A DNA stretch of 27,615 nt from a virus (Duplodnaviria > Heunggongvirae > Uroviricota > Caudoviricetes). The position numbers and the translations under genes were made by a program. Location: positions 69,551-97,165 of the IMG/VR virus record IMGVR_UViG_3300045996_003062; one strand, given 5' to 3'. Each line of letters opens with the position of its first letter. Within the stretch, counting starts at the first letter, position 1. The notes below the pieces were generated by a model. It did not search any database, had not been told where the DNA came from, and worked only from the letters and a program-made list of their open reading frames with translations. Shown here in pieces: positions 1 through 25,973 of this stretch.

Positions 1-573
1 AGCCGGTACGCCAAGATATTCGAGCGGACGGAAAGGCTGCTCGTTTGGATGCTGGACCGCCTCGCCGAGGTGGCCCCGGTCCAGGGCGTTGTCGTGCCCG
101 GGAACCATGACCGCATCACTGCCTTCACGCTCGGAAGGGTGCTGAACGCGAGGTACCACCGCGACGCCCGCGTCGAGATCGACTGCACCCCAAAGCTGCG
201 GAAGTACATCCGCTACGGCTGCAACCTGATCGGCTACACGCACGGCAATGAAGAGAAGCACGCGGACCTTCCCCTCATCATGGCACAGGAGTGCCCGCAG
301 GACTGGGCCGCCACTCGTCATCGCGAGTTCCACGTAGGCCATCTGCACAAGGCCAAGGAGACGCGCTACACCGCGGGCGATTCCTTCAATGGGGTGCGGG
401 TGAAGATTATTCCATCATTGACAAGCAGCGATTTCTGGCACTATGCCAAGGGGTATGTCCACGAGCGAAAGGCCGCTGAAGCCTATGTGTGGTCTCACGA
501 TGCTGGCTACGTCGGCCACTTCTCGTCCTCGCCGCCAAGCGGTGCGGCGGAGCGGCTACGGCAGGCGGCGTGA
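1..573 (+). CDS. Calcineurin-like metallophosphoesterase, phage type (5' partial)
   Basis: Frame open from base 1 to TGA 573; motifs PGNHD, YTHG and HVGHLH are metallophosphoesterase motifs III-V. Confidence 0.85.
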   Translation, partial: SRYAKIFERTERLLVWMLDRLAEVAPVQGVVVPGNHDRITAFTLGRVLNARYHRDARVEIDCTPKLRKYIRYGCNLIGYTHGNEEKHADLPLIMAQECPQDWAATRHREFHVGHLHKAKETRYTAGDSFNGVRVKIIPSLTSSDFWHYAKGYVHERKAAEAYVWSHDAGYVGHFSSSPPSGAAERLRQAA

Positions 574-1428: not shown

Positions 1429-1962
1429 TTAGACCGCGGTCCGGCGGGCGATGCGGACGACAGGCACGGCACTCGGCGAGAACCACGCCGAGGTCGCGGA
1501 CGCTGGCCGCGGGAGCGCCCTGCTTTCCACCTCCGCCCACGCACCGGCGCCCATGACGAGAAACGAGGTGCGAGGCCGGTGGCGTTCCATCTCGGACTTG
1601 ATGGCTTCCGCCCGCGTGCCGAAGTAGATGTCCACCACCTCCGTCCACGGCCCGCCATCGCGTCCGCGCACCACCTCGATGCACTCCATCGCAGGGGCGT
1701 CTTCGTCCACGATCCAGACGGGCGGCGGCGAGAACCGCTTCGCAAGCGCAGACAGCTCGGCGAGCATGTCCGGAGCGGAGTCGGCCCACTGCTTACCCGA
1801 TGTGGCCGTGGCCGTCGCGAGCGGCGTCGCCGGCGCCCCGAGCGCGGCAGTGTGACGCCGGTCCATCGCGCACGCTACCTCTCTCATCAGGGCCCGCATC
1901 ACTTCGGGCGGCAGATCCGTGTGGGGAGGCGAGATCACCAGGCTGGAAGTCGTGATCTTCAT
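1429..1962 (-). CDS. Hypothetical protein (177 aa, MKITTSS...)
   Basis: 3' part of the listed 301-aa ORF; ATG 1962 overlaps TGA 1959 of the upstream gene (ATGA). Confidence 0.75.
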   Translation of the reverse strand: MKITTSSLVISPPHTDLPPEVMRALMREVACAMDRRHTAALGAPATPLATATATSGKQWADSAPDMLAELSALAKRFSPPPVWIVDEDAPAMECIEVVRGRDGGPWTEVVDIYFGTRAEAIKSEMERHRPRTSFLVMGAGAWAEVESRALPRPASATSAWFSPSAVPVVRIARRTAV

Positions 1963-2474
1963 GGCCGTCGGGTGAACGGAGTGAGCCACGGCGTGCCACG
2001 GATAACTGGTGCCGGGAACGCGTCGGGCGGGTTTGGAACGCCGCACGTGAGACAGCACCCCGCCAGGCGGTGCCAGTGATGGCCGTGTATCGCGCACTGG
2101 AGTTGGGCTTGGAAGGCCGCCTCGCGGAGATGGCGCACCGTGCTTGGCCCCAGCCCAGCGGCTCGGAGCGCAGCCATGGCCGCAGCCGCATCCCGTCCGT
2201 GTAGCCAGCAGGCCACCCACAGGACGCGCCAGTTGACACCGTAGCGCTTGCCGATCCGCTGTGCTTGGACGCGGGCCTTCCGCAGCCGCTTGCGGGTCTG
2301 GCGCCGCGGACGGGCCTCGTAGGTCGCCGTCCATCCGGCAGGCGTGGCGACGGGTGCGTCGGCCTCAGCCTCCTCGCGGAAAGGCGAGTCCGCAGGGAGG
2401 AGCGCCCCGAGTCCCGACCACACATCCTCGCCTCCCCCGATCTCCAGCAGAACGCCGCTATACACGCGGACCAT
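1959..2474 (-). CDS. Hypothetical protein with C-terminal His/Cys cluster (171 aa)
   Basis: GAGGGAGGG RBS before ATG; C-terminal CAIHGHHWH...CCLTC may bind metal. Confidence 0.7.
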   Translation of the reverse strand: MVRVYSGVLLEIGGGEDVWSGLGALLPADSPFREEAEADAPVATPAGWTATYEARPRRQTRKRLRKARVQAQRIGKRYGVNWRVLWVACWLHGRDAAAAMAALRAAGLGPSTVRHLREAAFQAQLQCAIHGHHWHRLAGCCLTCGVPNPPDAFPAPVIRGTPWLTPFTRRP

Positions 2475-2489
2475 GGCGCCCCTCCCTCG

Positions 2490-2573
2490 TTAGGCCGCGT
2501 AGCGCGCGGCGTCTCTCTCGTTGAGGTCGTACACCACCACGTCCACGCCCGCGTCGCAGAGGTGCCGGCGGCG
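2490..2573 (-). pseudogene. C-terminal remnant of the same macrodomain gene
   Basis: RRHLCDAGVDVVVYDL matches the L-x-x-x-G-[IV]-x-V-x-VYD end of that family; GC returns to flank level. Confidence 0.55.
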
Positions 2574-3623
2574 GTGCGCGGCCACGTCAAGGCACAGGGT
2601 CACGAAGTCTCGCATGGAGTATGTGAGGCGCATTGAGTTCAATTTCCCGTGCACCAGTTGAATGTTATCGGCGTGGTATCCCCGCTCGCCGTTGATGCGG
2701 TCGATAGAGGCTGTGGTTTTTCCGCCGCAACTGGCGAACTCGATCGGAAGGCCGGAGATCGCGCACCGCTTACCTTGCGTCAGGTACAATGCCCAGACGG
2801 ACTCAATTGACAAGTCGAACGCCAGTCCCCGCGCTGCGGCCTTCGCGACCTTGTGTGACCACCAACGACCGCGAATCTCCATGAAGCCGGTGAACTGCGG
2901 ACTCGCTGCCCCCGTCAGCCATCTGGAGGAGGCGCGCGGACGCATCGCTTGGTCGCCGGTGGGTTCGGTGGGTCTAAATCCGCTCTGGAAGCGTGCGACG
3001 TGGCGACACAGATCAACATACTCCGCTACTCCCAACCGTCCTTTGGTCAGGTTCACCATCCGGTCAACCCACGCCACGTTGCCGCGGACGTATCCTACGC
3101 CGCTATCTATCCGGTCGAGGGAGGCGTTGCCTTGGCGCGACAGATTGAGCGATCGCCCGGACAGCGGGCAAGTCCCTCCCTGCGCTTGAAAGAGAAGCCA
3201 AGCATCCTTTGGCGTTATCGTCAGTTCCAATCCTCGGTCCCGAGCCCCGGCGCGAATCCCCGTCCAACGCGTTCCGCTTAACCCGCCGTATCCGGTATAC
3301 GATGGGCTGCTAGACCCGGTCATCTTCGCGTACTGATCGCGACGACATCCGCACGACGTGGTCGCACCGCGGCGCAAACTAGCGACGTGGATCGCCTTCG
3401 CTCCGCCACAGTCGCACTCACACCTCGCGTACCACTTGTACAGCCCGCGCGGACCGCTGCGGCGTTCCATCGCGACAACGATCAACAGACCGAACCGCTG
3501 CCCCCTCATATCGGGGTCGGGTGGGCCGCCCTGCCTTTCGCGCTTCTTTGCCTTCACCGGACGTCCGTCCCTCTCTGGAGAGGTGGCGTCTCCGATACGG
3601 TAGGTGAGGGAGCCGGGAGTCAT
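2490..3623 (-). CDS. Tandem His-Me finger (HNH-like) endonuclease fused in frame to macrodomain N- and C-terminal remnants (377 aa)
   Basis: ATG 3623 overlaps upstream TGA 3620. N-terminal GQRFGLL...CECDCG...SCGC module plus two copies of Q-G-x-C-x-[LI]SG...AS[LI]DRI[DN]xxxGY..xN...N. Ends resemble a macrodomain (LTYRIGDATSP; LCDAGVDVVVYDL). Confidence 0.85.
   Translation of the reverse strand: MTPGSLTYRIGDATSPERDGRPVKAKKRERQGGPPDPDMRGQRFGLLIVVAMERRSGPRGLYKWYARCECDCGGAKAIHVASLRRGATTSCGCRRDQYAKMTGSSSPSYTGYGGLSGTRWTGIRAGARDRGLELTITPKDAWLLFQAQGGTCPLSGRSLNLSRQGNASLDRIDSGVGYVRGNVAWVDRMVNLTKGRLGVAEYVDLCRHVARFQSGFRPTEPTGDQAMRPRASSRWLTGAASPQFTGFMEIRGRWWSHKVAKAAARGLAFDLSIESVWALYLTQGKRCAISGLPIEFASCGGKTTASIDRINGERGYHADNIQLVHGKLNSMRLTYSMRDFVTLCLDVAAHRRRHLCDAGVDVVVYDLNERDAARYAA
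2574..3557 (-). mobile_element. Putative homing-endonuclease cassette (approximate boundaries)
   Basis: Lower GC than flanks (hand count 34/60 at 2641-2700 versus 46/60 at 2281-2340); has its own GTG at 3557 with GAGAGGGA 10 nt upstream. Confidence 0.65.
3558..3623 (-). pseudogene. N-terminal remnant of a macrodomain (ADP-ribose-binding) gene
   Basis: MTPGSLTYRIGDATSPERDGRP matches the I-x-Y-x-x-GDAT-x-P start of small bacterial and phage macro proteins (recalled pattern). Confidence 0.6.
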
Positions 3624-3793
3624 GCGGGCTGAACCTCCGTCCAGACGTAGGTGGCGTGGTCCGCAGAGAGGACGTAGGCGAAGGCGTCCCAGTCGCGGTG
3701 AGAGAGGGTGCGCTCCCATCCCCTCGCTCCGCTGTACGCCGGTCGCAACTCGCCGTCCAGCGGGCCTCCGATGCACTCAGCGTGTGGCGGCAT
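3620..3793 (-). CDS. Hypothetical protein (57 aa, MPPHAECIGGPLDG...)
   Basis: GAGGA RBS before ATG 3793; GGPLDG motif common in small phage proteins; stop coupled to ATG 3623. Confidence 0.7.
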   Translation of the reverse strand: MPPHAECIGGPLDGELRPAYSGARGWERTLSHRDWDAFAYVLSADHATYVWTEVQPA

Positions 3794-4124
3794 AATCCTC
3801 GTCCTCCGTGTGCTGGGATTGGGGGACGTCTCGCCCCTTGCGGGCGGACGGCGGCAGCAGGAACAGGTTGCCGTCCTTCGCCACGAGATGATACCAATGC
3901 ATGCCCCTGACGTCGTAGTGCCAGTGACCGCCCCACTTCCGCCACCACTCCCGGTGAACGACCTCGTCCCCGTCCACGATGGCCCGGACATGAACCACAT
4001 GGTTGTTGGGGTTGTCCTCGCCCCACCACCAATGGAAGGAGGCGCCTGGGACGACGACGCTCTCCACCTCTTCAGGGAGCACGAGCCGCCCGCGTGGTGC
4101 ACTCGCGGTTCGCCGGGGTTTCAC
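3777..4124 (-). CDS. Trp/His-rich hypothetical protein (115 aa)
   Basis: GTG 4124 overlaps TGA 4121; NPNNHVVHVRAIVD...WWRKW..W.Y pattern. Confidence 0.75.
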   Translation of the reverse strand: MKPRRTASAPRGRLVLPEEVESVVVPGASFHWWWGEDNPNNHVVHVRAIVDGDEVVHREWWRKWGGHWHYDVRGMHWYHLVAKDGNLFLLPPSARKGRDVPQSQHTEDEDYAATR

Positions 4125-4399
4125 GCGCCCACCTTCAGCGCAGCGCGTCCCGCAGGGGAGATGCGAAGCCGGGGCATGTCGCCGGGGACGGCCCATGGGT
4201 ACAGGAGCCCAGCCGCAACGAGCCTCGCTTCAGCCGCTACGAGCTCGTGCCGGTAGTGCAGTGGGTCGGCGGCGTAGATCGGGCCGCAGGCCGCGTAGGT
4301 TCGGAGCACGGCCATCTCGTCAGGCGACACGAGGGCGGCCACACACCCGGCCTGCCGCTTCAGGCGCGCCACCTCGTCGGCGTGCGTTTCGTCGCTCAT
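4121..4399 (-). CDS. Hypothetical protein, possible winged-HTH (92 aa)
   Basis: ATGA coupling at 4396-4399 with GAGGGG RBS; LVAAGLL...RISPAGRAAL is wHTH-like. Confidence 0.75.
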   Translation of the reverse strand: MSDETHADEVARLKRQAGCVAALVSPDEMAVLRTYAACGPIYAADPLHYRHELVAAEARLVAAGLLYPWAVPGDMPRLRISPAGRAALKVGA

Positions 4400-4833
4400 C
4401 CGCCCCTCCCGCTGCGACCGGCTTCTCGCTCGCGCATGATGCGGGCGCGTAGTCCCTCGGGGACCGTAGGCTCTGACGCGCCAGTACGGTCGCACGTGTA
4501 GGAGTCCGCGACGCCTGAGCTGGTGCCCCGCACCCACGTCCAGACGCCGGACTCCGCGACGACGCGCCACCCAGCATCCTCCGCCCACGCGGTCCACAGG
4601 CGGTTGGAGGGCTCCACCTCGAACCGCGTCGGCCCGTCCGTGTACGTTACGACGTCCCAGTCGGGATGGACGCGGCGGCCGTTGAGGTAGTGGACCCTGT
4701 CGGGCTGCGGCATCCCCGCCCGTAACTGCGCCTCCGTCCGCCTCGGCGTCTCGTCCACGAACGTGCGGTCGGCGAGGTCGGGGCGGAAGTCGGCTGCGAC
4801 CTCCCAGGGCTCCACCTCTCTGTGCTCGCTCAC
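4396..4833 (-). CDS. Hypothetical protein (145 aa)
   Basis: GTGA coupling at 4830-4833 with GAGGAGG RBS. Confidence 0.75.
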   Translation of the reverse strand: MSEHREVEPWEVAADFRPDLADRTFVDETPRRTEAQLRAGMPQPDRVHYLNGRRVHPDWDVVTYTDGPTRFEVEPSNRLWTAWAEDAGWRVVAESGVWTWVRGTSSGVADSYTCDRTGASEPTVPEGLRARIMREREAGRSGRGG

Positions 4834-20041: not shown

Positions 20042-20226
20042 ACCGAGAGGCGGCGTTGATTCTGGCGAACTGGCGGCGGACCGAGACGCCCCACGGGGCG
20101 ATGCTGGACGAGATGCTGGCGCGCCTGAACCGGCAGGCGGAGGAGACGGTTGGCGCACTGTGGCCGCGGGCGCGTGCCATCCGTCCCGGTCTTTTGCTCC
20201 ACCGCCGCGGGAAGGATGACGCGTGA
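20038..20226 (+). CDS. Hypothetical protein (62 aa)
   Basis: GTGA coupling on both sides; GGAGGG RBS. Confidence 0.65.
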   Translation: MNREAALILANWRRTETPHGAMLDEMLARLNRQAEETVGALWPRARAIRPGLLLHRRGKDDA

Positions 20227-21725
20227 CAACACGATCCGTCGGGAAGGCGACGACGCTACACCTCGGGGACTGCCGCGACGTCCTCCGCTCCATGCCAGAC
20301 AACAGCGTGGACGCGGTGGTGACGGATCCGCCCTACGGCCTCAACTCCGAACTTTCCCCCAAGGAGCTGGCGGGGATGCTCGCCGCGTGGTCTGCGGGGG
20401 AGCCCTGGCAGCGAAAGGGCGGCGGGTTCATGGGACGGGAGTGGGATTCGAGCGTCCCCGGCCCCGACGTCTGGCGCGAGGTGTTCCGGGTGTTGAAGCC
20501 CGGCGGCCACGCCCTCGTCTTCGCGGGGACGCGGACCTACGACTTGATGGTGCTGGCGCTACGGCTGGCGGGGTTTGAATGTCGCGACTGCCTGGCCTAC
20601 CACTTCGCTTCGGGATTCCCGAAATCGCTGGACGTGAGCGCCGCGCTGGACCGGAGGGCAGGTGCGAAGCGGGAGGTCGTTGGGCCGAATCCTACATGGC
20701 GGGATGCGAAGCGCGACAACCGCATCATGCGCCCCGTTTCCGGTGATGGGGCGAAATGGATCACGGCGCCCGCATCCGAGTCCGCCCGCCAGTGGGAAGG
20801 ATTTGGGACGTCTCTCAAGCCCGCCTTTGAGCCCATCGCCCTCGTACGGAAGCCACTGGCGGGAACGGTTGCTGAGAACGTCCTGTCCTACGGAACAGGA
20901 GCGCTGAACATCGGAGGATGCAGGATCGGAACTACGAAGGATGTGCCTGCGTCGCCAGCCAAGGCGCGCATCAACATCGCCAAGGGGGCCGAGCGCGACC
21001 GTGCGGCGGACACCTCCGGTTACAACCCGGACGTCGGCCGCTGGCCTGCCAATGTCCTGCTGGGAGACTCTGAGGTAGCGGAGATGCTGGATGCGCAGGC
21101 GGGGGAACGGCCTGGGGTGGGCAAGCCTCGCGTGCTACGCCGCGGACACAGTACCTCCAGCGGAATCGGCTACGGCTCCACTGCGGAGGGCGGCGCGGCA
21201 CCCGTAGGATTTCAAGACTCAAGCACGAACGCATCCCGGTTCTTCTTCACGGCGAAGCCCGCGAAGCGGGAGCGTCACCTCGGATGCCGTGACCTGTACT
21301 GGCGCCGAGATAAGTCGTCACCGACGGGCGTGGTCCGCGTATCCCGCGAGGAGTGGGAAGCTCTGCCGGAAGCGGAGCAGGCGCACGGGAATATCCACCC
21401 CACCGTGAAGCCGCTGTCCGCGATGCGGTGGCTGGTCCGCCTCGTCACCCCACCGGGCGGGACGGTGCTGGACCCGTTCGTGGGAAGCGGCACGACGGCG
21501 ATGGCGTGCGAGGCGGAAGGGTTCGAGTGCGTGGCCGTGGACCTGTACGCCGACCACCTGGACGTGGCGGCCTGCCGGATCGGTTCGGTGCACGAGCTGG
21601 GGGAGAAGCGACCCCCGATTGCGAAGGCCAAGCGCGAGGTCGCGCCGCCGCCCACACCAACCGTGCCGCGGCCGGACGTGGCCCCTCGCGTGCTCGACCT
21701 GTTCAGTATGGACGAAGCGGCGTGA
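20223..21725 (+). CDS. DNA N6-adenine/N4-cytosine methyltransferase, beta group (500 aa)
   Basis: GDC..VL, VTDPPY (motif IV) N-terminal; HPTVKP and LDPFVGSGTT (motif I) C-terminal. Confidence 0.95.
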   Translation: MTTRSVGKATTLHLGDCRDVLRSMPDNSVDAVVTDPPYGLNSELSPKELAGMLAAWSAGEPWQRKGGGFMGREWDSSVPGPDVWREVFRVLKPGGHALVFAGTRTYDLMVLALRLAGFECRDCLAYHFASGFPKSLDVSAALDRRAGAKREVVGPNPTWRDAKRDNRIMRPVSGDGAKWITAPASESARQWEGFGTSLKPAFEPIALVRKPLAGTVAENVLSYGTGALNIGGCRIGTTKDVPASPAKARINIAKGAERDRAADTSGYNPDVGRWPANVLLGDSEVAEMLDAQAGERPGVGKPRVLRRGHSTSSGIGYGSTAEGGAAPVGFQDSSTNASRFFFTAKPAKRERHLGCRDLYWRRDKSSPTGVVRVSREEWEALPEAEQAHGNIHPTVKPLSAMRWLVRLVTPPGGTVLDPFVGSGTTAMACEAEGFECVAVDLYADHLDVAACRIGSVHELGEKRPPIAKAKREVAPPPTPTVPRPDVAPRVLDLFSMDEAA

Positions 21726-23883: not shown

Positions 23884-24343
23884 GGTCTGCGATCTCCTTC
23901 CGGTAGTAGGTCCACGATCCGCGCTCCTGCGACGGTGCGAAACCGTGGCGCAGGAACACGGTGCGGATGAAGTCGGTGCGGGTGGCGCCTCGCACCTCCC
24001 GCGGTCGAAGCTCCAGCGCGAGCGCGAGCCGCAGATCGAACATCCGCGCGTAGATACCGCGGCGACGGTGGGCGGGGACGACGTACATGAAGTCCAGCGT
24101 CACGACGCCGGCCGTCGCGACGCGGCCGGCATGAAAGGAGCCCAGCCCGACGACCCGGCCCTCGCTCCGCACGACGACCCATATCGTGTCGGCGCTGTCG
24201 AACCACGGCCCGCCGAGCTCCGTTGCCACATCGCGGCTCGCGAAGAACGGGCCGGTGTCCGCCCAGAACTCGCGTCCCCTCTCCGCCGAGGACTCGCGGG
24301 TGTACGTGTAGCCGCCCTCGACCGCGAGTACCCGCGGACTCAC
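23876..24343 (-). CDS. GNAT-family acetyltransferase (155 aa)
   Basis: MYVVPAHRRRGIY acetyl-CoA motif A and F.RHGF motif B; GTGA coupled to the ibrA stop. Confidence 0.85.
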   Translation of the reverse strand: MSPRVLAVEGGYTYTRESSAERGREFWADTGPFFASRDVATELGGPWFDSADTIWVVVRSEGRVVGLGSFHAGRVATAGVVTLDFMYVVPAHRRRGIYARMFDLRLALALELRPREVRGATRTDFIRTVFLRHGFAPSQERGSWTYYRKEIADRA

Positions 24344-25557
24344 ACGATCCCCCACGCCGCCCTCCGCTTCTTCATCAGCTTCTTGTAGGCGTCGTACGCC
24401 GCCGTCTTCGTCGGACTGAACGAGAGCGCCTTGCACCAGTAGTCGTTCCGAAGGAGCACCTTGCAGATCCGTCTCCAGCTCGGCACGTCCTTGCTGCCCG
24501 TGTCCCCGTCCTGTGCGTCCGGGATGCCGCGCGCGTACAGGTGGCCGTAGTGCGTGGTGCAGTAGCGGACGTAGACGGCGATCTTGTTCCGGTAGTGCTC
24601 CGCCGTCGGGGGTGGCATCGTAGCCAGGAGCAGTTCCGCGAACGATCGGTACGTGTGCCCCTCCGGCAGGGTGATCTGCTGGTTGCCCAGGATGTTGCCC
24701 GCCTCCTTCGCGTACAGCGCCGCCGAGTTGGCGCCCGCCACGCGCGCCACCACCCGCCCCCACGTCTCCGGCTCCACGAGGTGGAACAGCCACAGGCCCC
24801 GGCGTTGCTCGTCCCCGTAGGGCTCACAGATCCGCATCGTGTGGAGTGGCACGCCCGCCTGGTGCATCCGGTCGTAGAGGCGGTTGTACGGCAGGCGCTC
24901 GCGCCCCAGGTACGTCCAGATGTCCTCGGTGCGCCAGTCGTAGATGGGATACGCGTTGTAGGTGGAGCCGCCCGGAATCCACGTCGTCCATCCCAGCCCC
25001 TCGTGCGTGCGCTTGGTTTCGTGGGCGATGGTCCGGAACCGATGCAGGGACTCGTCGCTCCGAATCCCGATCATCGCTGCGGTGAGCGCCGTTCCTCCGT
25101 ACCACGCGGCGAACGCCGGGACGAACTCCTCGAAGGTCATTGCAGGGCGGTAGAACGGGAACGCCCGCTCGTCCGTGATCGCGTCCGGCGGCGGCTGTCG
25201 CACCCATTCCTTACCCGGTTCCCAGCACGTCCACTCCGGTTCGTGCATGCTGCACGCGTTCGTCGTCCGCAGGGGGAGAGCGACCCAGTAAGGATCCGCC
25301 ACGTCGGCGTGCAGCGTCAGGCACTCGCGCACGTGCTCGATCGTGAGGGTGAACTGCGCCTCCCAGTCGATGAACAGCACGCCGATCCGGCGACCGCGGC
25401 GCCGTGCCTCGTCCGCGGTCAGATGGAATAGGACCGTGCTGTCCTTCCCACCGCTGAACGACACGTACACCAGCTCGAACTCATCGAACACCCGCGCGAT
25501 CCGATCCCTCGCGGCTGCGAGCACGTCGACGCCGATCCCGCGCTTCAGCCGAGACAC
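24340..25557 (-). CDS. ibrA: IbrA/YbdN-like PAPS-reductase-family protein (DUF3440 type, 405 aa)
   Basis: PP-loop SFSGGKDS, FIDWEAQ, GIRSDESL.R, YPIYDW, MRICEPYG, WRRICK.LL.NDYWCK.LSF. Confidence 0.93.
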   Translation of the reverse strand: MSRLKRGIGVDVLAAARDRIARVFDEFELVYVSFSGGKDSTVLFHLTADEARRRGRRIGVLFIDWEAQFTLTIEHVRECLTLHADVADPYWVALPLRTTNACSMHEPEWTCWEPGKEWVRQPPPDAITDERAFPFYRPAMTFEEFVPAFAAWYGGTALTAAMIGIRSDESLHRFRTIAHETKRTHEGLGWTTWIPGGSTYNAYPIYDWRTEDIWTYLGRERLPYNRLYDRMHQAGVPLHTMRICEPYGDEQRRGLWLFHLVEPETWGRVVARVAGANSAALYAKEAGNILGNQQITLPEGHTYRSFAELLLATMPPPTAEHYRNKIAVYVRYCTTHYGHLYARGIPDAQDGDTGSKDVPSWRRICKVLLRNDYWCKALSFSPTKTAAYDAYKKLMKKRRAAWGIV

Positions 25558-25973
25558 GCCGTCACCTCCGCCTCGGTGATCTCCTCGATCCGGCCATCCG
25601 CGACCCGGCAGAAGTAGCGCCGCTCGCGGCCGTGGCTGATAAGGTCGTTCACCTCGTACAGCTTCCCGGCGCGGAGCGTGTAGATCATGTACACCCCGCG
25701 GGCCCCGAGGCCCCGCACGCCCGTCGTGTCGCGCTGTCCGTGGACGGGCGTGCGGGTCGGCCGCCCATCCACGACGGGGGCTCCGACCTCCGCCACCCAC
25801 GGATGCCGGAGCGGACGGTAGAGGTTCTTCGCGACGCGGGGAGGCGGTCGCTGGTCCCGGTGCTTCCGGAAATGCGGCACAGCCACCCGCAGGTCGTCGC
25901 CGATCGCCTCCAGGCGAATCGTGGCCGTCTGCGTCGCCCGCGGCGGAGTCAGGCGAACCCCGGGCGTCGTCAC
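25545..25973 (-). CDS. Conserved phage protein of the type found beside ibrAB (142 aa)
   Basis: GTGA coupling; WVAE...G.RGVY..Y.L..G..YEV...RYFC.V pattern (recalled). Confidence 0.8.
   Translation of the reverse strand: MTTPGVRLTPPRATQTATIRLEAIGDDLRVAVPHFRKHRDQRPPPRVAKNLYRPLRHPWVAEVGAPVVDGRPTRTPVHGQRDTTGVRGLGARGVYMIYTLRAGKLYEVNDLISHGRERRYFCRVADGRIEEITEAEVTACLG

Follow-up and report, generated by a model that had tools for sequence, protein, structure and literature searches.

How did a single phage reading frame come to begin and end like a small macrodomain protein while encoding an endonuclease in between? The question is raised by a gene in the window analysed here, by which we mean the whole 27,615-nucleotide stretch from positions 69,551 to 97,165 of IMG/VR virus record IMGVR_UViG_3300045996_003062, that is, the final 27.6 kb of a 97,165-bp record that carries direct terminal repeats and is rated 100% complete. 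The genome, of a high-GC uncultivated phage, has a GC content of 69.1%. The gene, which we call the fusion open reading frame (fusion ORF; window positions 2490–3623, minus strand), runs in one unbroken frame from the ATG at 3623 to the TAA at 2490–2492 and encodes 377 amino acids (aa; protein P0001). A first-pass annotation, made from the DNA letters alone, had proposed that a macrodomain gene was hollowed out here and its interior replaced in frame by a tandem endonuclease. On the evidence set out below we consider it likely that a homing-type endonuclease entered a stand-alone macrodomain gene (hereafter macro gene) and that subsequent deletions produced an in-frame mosaic under the macro gene's own expression signals.

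Read in the direction of transcription, the parts of the mosaic and of its immediate surroundings are as follows.

3620–3793, minus strand: upstream gene of 57 aa, with a third-codon-position GC fraction (GC3) of 0.82; its TGA (3620–3622) overlaps the ATG of the fusion ORF as ATGA.
3634–3638, minus strand: GGAGG Shine-Dalgarno sequence, 10 nt 5' of the fusion-ORF ATG, by direct reading of the sequence.
3558–3623, minus strand: macro N-terminal remnant, codons 1–22, including T-Y-R-I-G-D-A-T-S-P and the native ATG (3621–3623); from a macro hidden Markov model (HMM) and BLAST.
3537–3557, minus strand: junction zone, codons 23–29 (V-K-A-K-K-R-E), assignable to neither parent and holding the GTG at 3555–3557; the macro HMM envelope ends at residue 25 and the endonuclease HMM starts at residue 30.
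3510–3536, minus strand: endonuclease linker, codons 30–38 (R-Q-G-G-P-P-D-P-D), matching the homologs' internal linker R-A-R-K-P-P-x-x-D before G-Q-R-F-G; from an HMM and BLASTP to P0006, P0010 and P0012.
3324–3509, minus strand: Cys-rich module, codons 39–100 (G-Q-R-F-G...C-E-C-D-C-G...S-C-G-C); from homolog alignments and an AlphaFold2 (AF2) beta-sheet with a predicted local distance difference test score (pLDDT) of about 90.
2985–3311, minus strand: nuclease module 1, codons ~105–213 (S-L-D-R-I-D...G-N-V-A-W-V-D-R-M-V-N); from phrog_3322, phrog_1035, the module HMM, AF2 and Foldseek.
2574–2909, minus strand: nuclease module 2, codons ~239–350 (S-I-D-R-I-N...N-I-Q-L-V-H-G-K-L-N); from phrog_3118, alignment and tree.
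2493–2567, minus strand: macro C-terminal remnant, codons 353–377 (L-C-D-A-G-V-D-V-V-V-Y-D-L-N-E-R-D-A-A-R-Y-A-A), followed by the TAA; from the macro HMM and BLAST.
1959–2474, minus strand: downstream gene of 171 aa, an ORFan, with its own ribosome site GGGAGGGG in the 15-nt spacer after the macro stop.

We examined the two ends against a reference set obtained by scanning IMG/VR for the back-translated motif C-N-D-x-G-x-W-G-x-G-F, which gave 112 loci whose ORFs, of ~155 aa, start with x-I-x-Y-x-x-G-D-A-T-x-P and finish with V-x-V-Y-D-L. The family was checked through one member, which matched SCO6735 (5e3b) at E 1.6e-61 and also BT1257 (2fg1) and the CHD1L macro domain; three of the reference macros fall in phrog_335. 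An HMM built from 90 non-redundant phage macro genes of IMG/VR (173 profile positions) aligns residues 5–21 of the fusion protein with profile positions 6–22 and residues 353–374 with positions 146–167, collinearly and terminus to terminus, for a score of 10.4 bits (P 2e-5 for one sequence). By short BLAST the N end matches positions 3–19 of macro proteins, for example T-Y-R-I-G-D-A-T-A-P in L090, and the C end matches the last ~15–20 residues of L045, L084, L059, L110 and L108, as in L-C-A-R-G-V-D-V-T-V-Y-D-L of L045 and V-Y-D-L-R-A-T-D-A-E-R-Y of L108. The N-terminal strand with its G-D-A-T-x-P loop is thus present at the start of the protein and the C-terminal strand V-x-V-Y-D-L at its end, as they are in SCO6735, BT1257 and the phrog_335 macros. 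The resemblance of the ends to a small macrodomain protein, which the first-pass annotation had noticed by eye, is borne out, and these data support reading both ends as remnants of a small ALC1/SCO6735-like macro gene.

Could the ends instead be ordinary variable tails of the endonuclease family that happen to look like a macrodomain? Such tails do occur in the family, the motifs are short, one of them recurs in unrelated proteins, and the case was picked from very many windows. We nevertheless judge a chance resemblance very improbable, since there are two independent matches, collinear and each at the matching terminus of protein and profile, and since their combined score stands far from every control: 20,000 versions of the protein with shuffled ends reached at most 2.3 bits, and of 3,213 background ORFs a single one fell between 8 and 40 bits, a macro ORF cut to 65 aa (L067) with 8.4. 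No related endonuclease came close, with none of 72 homologs and none of 133 family ORFs exceeding 4.1 bits on the macro HMM. The ends therefore align to macro proteins and are not shared by the endonuclease's relatives, the two points on which the first-pass annotation had staked its reading. In addition, the C-terminal remnant has a GC3 of 0.96, like resident genes and unlike the core between the ends (0.72), and the endonuclease family is independently linked to macro genes, as described below.

Between the ends, nothing of the macrodomain is left. Profile positions 23–145, which hold the H-x-C-N-D, G-x-W-G-x-G-F and P-x-I/F-G-x-G-L-A-G-G motifs of ALC1-like macros, have no counterpart in the fusion ORF or in the six-frame translation of the genome, in agreement with the first-pass statement that the macro core is absent. 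The missing part amounts to about 70% of the gene, leaving ~47 of ~155 macro codons, and a protein of this make-up would be unable to fold or act as a macrodomain. Because the fusion ORF is the sole macro HMM match in all six frames of its own 97-kb genome, there is neither a second macro gene nor a hidden core. This bears on another explanation, in which the macro gene hosts an intron or intein whose removal by splicing would yield a functional macro protein. Introns and inteins are common carriers of homing endonucleases; here, however, those ~47 codons are all that exists of the macro gene anywhere in the genome and in any frame, no Rfam intron match lies within 1500–4600, no Pfam family of any kind is reported in the protein, and the reading frame is continuous with the endonuclease homology. 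With no macro 'exons' left to join, this explanation is refuted as far as can be read from the DNA, and we give it next to no credence.

The interior, residues ~30–352, is a phage HNH-fold endonuclease with one CxCxCG...SCGC module (CxCDCG...SCGC, residues 68–93) and two nuclease modules, placed by the module HMM at residues 107–211 and 242–349 and matched by PHROG families annotated as endonuclease, HNH endonuclease and endonuclease VII; the first-pass description of a Cys-rich module plus two nuclease repeats was correct. A large protein collection holds 72 homologs, the best at 43–47% identity, built from one to three G-x-x-F-G...C-x-C-x-C-G...S-C-G-C modules followed by one or two nuclease modules. 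Tandem forms of 319–414 aa are known among them, which makes the two-module arrangement an old one. Module 2 of the fusion protein shares its D-to-N and W-to-L changes (S-I-D-R-I-N, N-I-Q-L-V-H) with module 2 of the tandem homolog P0008, and in a tree of modules it clusters with that module and with L160 (Shimodaira–Hasegawa-like approximate likelihood-ratio test, SH-aLRT, 90). An AF2 model built on 20 homologs gives the core a pLDDT of about 90 and places a beta-beta-alpha element in each module (strands 167–171 and 183–187 with helix 188–194; strands 305–309 and 321–325 with helix 326–331); the best Foldseek matches are PacI (3ldy), the Cas9 HNH domain and Gme HNH (4h9d), at a Foldseek probability of 0.95–1.0 and E about 0.01. 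Each module thus has the beta-beta-alpha core of PacI, Cas9 HNH, Gme HNH and T4 endonuclease VII-like proteins. The Asn residues of the family motif, S-x-D-R-x-D...Y...N...W...N, are conserved as well: N182 never varies, and N191 is kept in at least 90% of sequences. Unlike HNH/His-Me nucleases, the family has no CX2C zinc pairs, and in the fusion protein the modules stand in tandem and each deviates at a different conserved residue.

The deviations are these: module 1 lacks the conserved His of W-V-H-K, reading W-V-D-R, and in module 2 Asn replaces the second Asp and Leu replaces Trp. Because they fall at different conserved residues, the two modules may have divided their roles.

In composition the core stands apart from the genome, with 62.3% GC against 69.1% and a GC3 of 0.72 against 0.82 +/- 0.06 for likely genes, which puts it at the lower end of the range of the genome's own genes. 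The lower GC that the first-pass annotation had noted in the interior is therefore real, if modest, and it supports the view that the endonuclease core is a foreign insert.

How the two parents were joined can be read in part from the junctions. On the N side the macro-like stretch ends at about codon 22–25, and an HMM of the eight nearest homologs aligns from residue 30, HMM position 58 on, setting R-Q-G-G-P-P-D-P-D-M-R-G-Q-R-F-G against r-a-r-k-P-p-l-l-d-l-v-G-q-r-f-G. In those homologs the aligned linker is internal, lying 3' of a first domain of 55–70 residues. As homology starts at about residue 30, inside this linker, and the homologs have an additional N-terminal domain, the endonuclease looks truncated; it is probably not a complete insert, and has no start of its own. 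On the C side endonuclease homology ends at residue ~352 and macro homology begins at 353, leaving no endonuclease stop. A truncated N side together with a missing stop implies at least two junction events, both in frame. The idea of a replaced gene interior thus survives as regards the mosaic and the loss of the macro core, and fails as regards a clean cassette exchange.

The signals that frame the mosaic are those of the macro gene. The ATGA overlap with the upstream gene and the GGAGG are both kept, from which the upstream 57-aa gene is predicted to be translationally coupled to the fusion ORF, as first proposed from the continuous frame; the macro stop (TAA) and the ribosome site of the next gene are likewise retained, so that start, Shine-Dalgarno sequence and stop have all been reused. 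The nuclease would now be made from the macro gene's ATG and GGAGG. The first-pass annotation had also given the insert a ribosome-binding site and GTG start of its own at 3557. That claim fails, because the purines preceding the GTG encode E-R-D-G and align to the macro profile; the GTG itself is codon 23, in or beside the macro-like stretch. As for the remnants at the protein level, AF2 predicts disorder at both ends, with pLDDT <50 for the N-terminal remnant and from residue 357 onward, and both are presumably disordered passengers.

These signals also bear on a variant of the same origin in which translation starts internally, at Met39 (3507–3509) or at the GTG of codon 23, so that the 5' remnant is a leader or short decoy ORF and its frame an accident. 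In-frame ATG and GTG codons are indeed present, the single-module homologs P0003 and P0004 start only ~6 residues ahead of the residue equivalent to Met39, and a junction would be in frame without selection with a chance of 1 in 3. Yet no Shine-Dalgarno sequence lies within 20 nt 5' of Met39, whereas the ATG at 3623 has GGAGG at 10 nt and the ATGA coupling; the nearest homologs have Leu, Met or Ile at the position of Met39, which is hence not their start, and homology reaches back to residue 30; and the purines ahead of the GTG belong to macro-type coding sequence. We regard an internal start as unlikely.

If an endonuclease did enter a macro gene here, does its family keep company with macro genes elsewhere? 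We find that it does: in other phages its members occur in physical linkage with intact macro genes, an association that is new here. Of the 112 macro loci, 3 contain a family member, which in L055 lies directly downstream of the macro gene. Seen from the endonuclease side, the family has at least 556 relatives in IMG/VR, and among the loci of the best 80 (each taken with +/- 4 kb) 8, of which 7 are distinct, hold a macro gene. The two genes are direct neighbours in L227, where they converge, in L162, where they diverge, and in L160, where the endonuclease is upstream; in L159 the macro gene comes directly after a second HNH gene, of the Cys type, ~0.9 kb downstream of the family member. An initial estimate of enrichment from INPHARED densities was dropped in favour of a within-record null, because macro domains, whatever their class, are frequent in large phages (PMC9503650). 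For this null we used 76 whole records with the endonuclease, 17 of them with one macro gene. The gap between the two genes was at most 100 nt in 4 of the 17 (0.26 expected, P 3.5e-5) and at most 6 kb in 9 (2.3 expected, P 4e-6); under the stricter assumption that both genes keep to one third of the genome, P rises to about 2.4e-3 and 1e-2, respectively.

A further arrangement is seen in L097 (3281–4657), with L055 the second case of adjacency among the macro loci, where an intact macro gene (3586–4104) lies between a 96-codon nuclease-module fragment upstream and a Cys-containing HNH gene downstream. The fragment has neither a start nor a Cys module and is probably a decaying endonuclease gene, and the region looks like an endonuclease hot spot.

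Beyond macro genes, family members occupy unrelated loci in diverse phages, between thyX fragments and near ribonucleotide reductase and DNA polymerase I genes. In PhiCrAssBcn18 a member sits just downstream of two ribonucleotide reductase coding sequences. In crAss-like phage cr111_1 (NC_055880.1; L151:2114–4011) the member gp038 sits between two coding sequences annotated as flavin-dependent thymidylate synthase, and the thyX gene appears to be split by it. Such behaviour, together with a composition unlike that of the host genome at the present locus, fits a homing endonuclease.

The family's adjacency to intact macro genes lends indirect support to the first-pass suggestion of the macro gene as home or target of the nuclease. 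Intact macro alleles may well be the element's natural landing site. The stronger proposal, that the macro gene is what the nuclease cuts and that deletion of its core confers self-immunity, we put forward only tentatively.

Several observations weigh against the proposed invasion of a macro gene. The first is that INPHARED, IMG/VR and the protein collections yielded no relative in which the allele is intact or lacks the endonuclease, either by megablast of 8 kb or among loci related through the fusion ORF, the downstream neighbour or the nearby exonuclease; the related phage with an intact macro gene at this locus that the first-pass annotation had hoped for did not turn up. Without an intact parental allele the junctions are not mappable to a parent, and the order of events stays, like the target, a matter of inference. 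The second is that the record is a metagenome assembly, and the join could in principle be chimeric, made from reads of two phage variants. However, two separate in-frame junctions 1 kb apart would both need to be artefacts, the flanks on both sides agree in composition and gene organisation, and the record has direct terminal repeats and its rating of full completeness. An artefact of this kind seems to us very remote, slightly more so than a chance resemblance of the ends. That scaffolds of this sort do exist is seen in the one look-alike that came up in the search for relatives, a 96-kb record (G001, IMGVR_UViG_3300037067_006117) with a 51% identical exonuclease: there 10 N at 3602–3611 join a 3.6-kb high-GC piece carrying the exonuclease to unrelated DNA, beyond the gap no further tblastx match to the window's phage was found, and we rejected it as a relative. 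A tblastx comparison of all high-GC loci with the genome gave noise only.

The third point against is that Pfam gives no match, whether on the whole protein, on both ends or, for Macro_2 (PF14519), on the genome. Four of five reference macros tested, however, themselves fall under the Pfam Macro cut-off and the fifth has no Pfam match at all, so Pfam is unsuited to the question of the macro ends; the proposed comparison of the fused ends with Macro profiles thus succeeded with our custom phage macro HMM and yielded nothing with Pfam profiles. A tblastn search of 50,697 phage records with the two ends as queries (28 and 34 residues) likewise returned no match at E up to 10, and a 53-residue chimera of both ends found only its own protein among 5.8 billion, a query too short for a database of that size. 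Fourth, each remnant is short, and the 9-mer YRIGDATSP recurs in unrelated metagenome proteins: in a back-translated scan of metagenome contigs it appeared near the C terminus of proteins of 600–680 aa (L137, L138, L144), and this short motif alone is therefore no evidence for macro ancestry. The corresponding scan of viral contigs for GVDVVVYD(L/F) gave two loci, in which the exact 9-mer GVDVVVYDL was not found.

Fifth, the public gene call at this locus, P0002 (window 2493–3230, minus strand; 246 aa), starts internally, at a TTG that is codon 132 and lies inside conserved nuclease module 1, and as a result neither the fusion nor the Cys module can be seen among the proteins that the record itself lists. 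Sixth, the general-base His (D-H) with which the first strand of HNH nucleases ends is not present in the family, which has D-R instead (S-x-D-R-x-D), the Arg being invariant in 20 aligned homologs and in every module shown. We take this Arg to occupy the position of the general-base His, by a comparison of motifs rather than by structural superposition; with an Arg in that position the fold is seen and catalysis is assumed, and nuclease activity of the fusion protein is accordingly treated as an assumption throughout. Last, the macro-adjacent members fail to group as a single clade on the module tree, which is poorly resolved and has too few columns to decide whether they are a single lineage.

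Taking these points together with the evidence for the mosaic, we still favour entry of an endonuclease into a macro gene, and would picture its history as follows. The ancestor would have been a stand-alone ALC1/SCO6735-like macro gene of ~155 codons, one of several consecutive accessory genes on the minus strand and translationally coupled to the gene upstream. It would then have been invaded by a free-standing gene for a homing-type endonuclease of the HNH fold, with a Cys-rich DNA-binding module and two nuclease modules. In the process ~110 central macro codons would have been lost, and with them all ADP-ribose-binding and catalytic motifs, while the endonuclease would have lost its N-terminal domain, start and stop. 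The product would be a single frame consisting of macro codons 1–22, a short junction, endonuclease residues ~30–352 and the last 25 macro codons.

Free-standing HNH endonucleases in phage genes have a precedent in mobE, which lies in nrdA of Aeromonas phage Aeh1. As in that case and in the cr111_1 thyX case, the present locus has a selfish endonuclease in a phage gene, with lower GC, no intron or intein, and the expression context of the host gene. In those cases, however, the host gene persists as two working pieces or intact, whereas here ~70% of it is lost and the endonuclease forms one frame with the two stumps, from which it takes its start and stop.

As to the surroundings, the genes flanking the fusion ORF have no PHROG family. 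The downstream gene has a full-length match only to itself in a HMMER search of 1.84 billion representative proteins, its sole non-self match there being P0075, a 527-aa protein that it meets in 8 separate stretches, the best covering query residues 133–168; its C-terminal stretch is rich in Cys and His (C-A-I-H-G-H-H-W-H...C-C-L-T-C-G). Elsewhere in the window we noted the C-terminal part of an Mre11/SbcD-like DNA repair exonuclease (1–573, plus strand; phrog_704), a DNA methyltransferase (20223–21725, plus strand; phrog_67) and a PAPS-reductase-family protein (24340–25800, minus strand; phrog_2302).

What the phage gave up can be gauged from related macrodomains. SCO6735 reverses the thymidine-linked DNA ADP-ribosylation introduced by DarT (PMC9411070), and the stand-alone T4 macro AdfM (Tk.4) protects against DarTG2 (PMC13716836), so that stand-alone phage macrodomains are known counter-defences against DarT DNA ADP-ribosylation. 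Given these activities it is a fair inference that the phage would have lost a DNA de-ADP-ribosylating, anti-DarT-type function, and the locus would represent such a counter-defence gene destroyed by a selfish endonuclease that seized its expression signals. Taken by itself, the locus is a gene remnant and not a new mechanism. A bolder possibility, to which we lend limited credence, is that this endonuclease lineage homes into anti-DarT-type macro genes, and that the replacement allele is immune, its core having been deleted along with the cleavage site, and converts intact macro genes in mixed infections, with the macro stumps and the neighbouring genes acting as homology arms. If this is true, then a selfish element spreads by knocking out a phage counter-defence gene. 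More generally, the recurrent adjacency of the two families in several unrelated phages suggests that homing endonucleases help to shuffle, spread or erase macro anti-defence genes.

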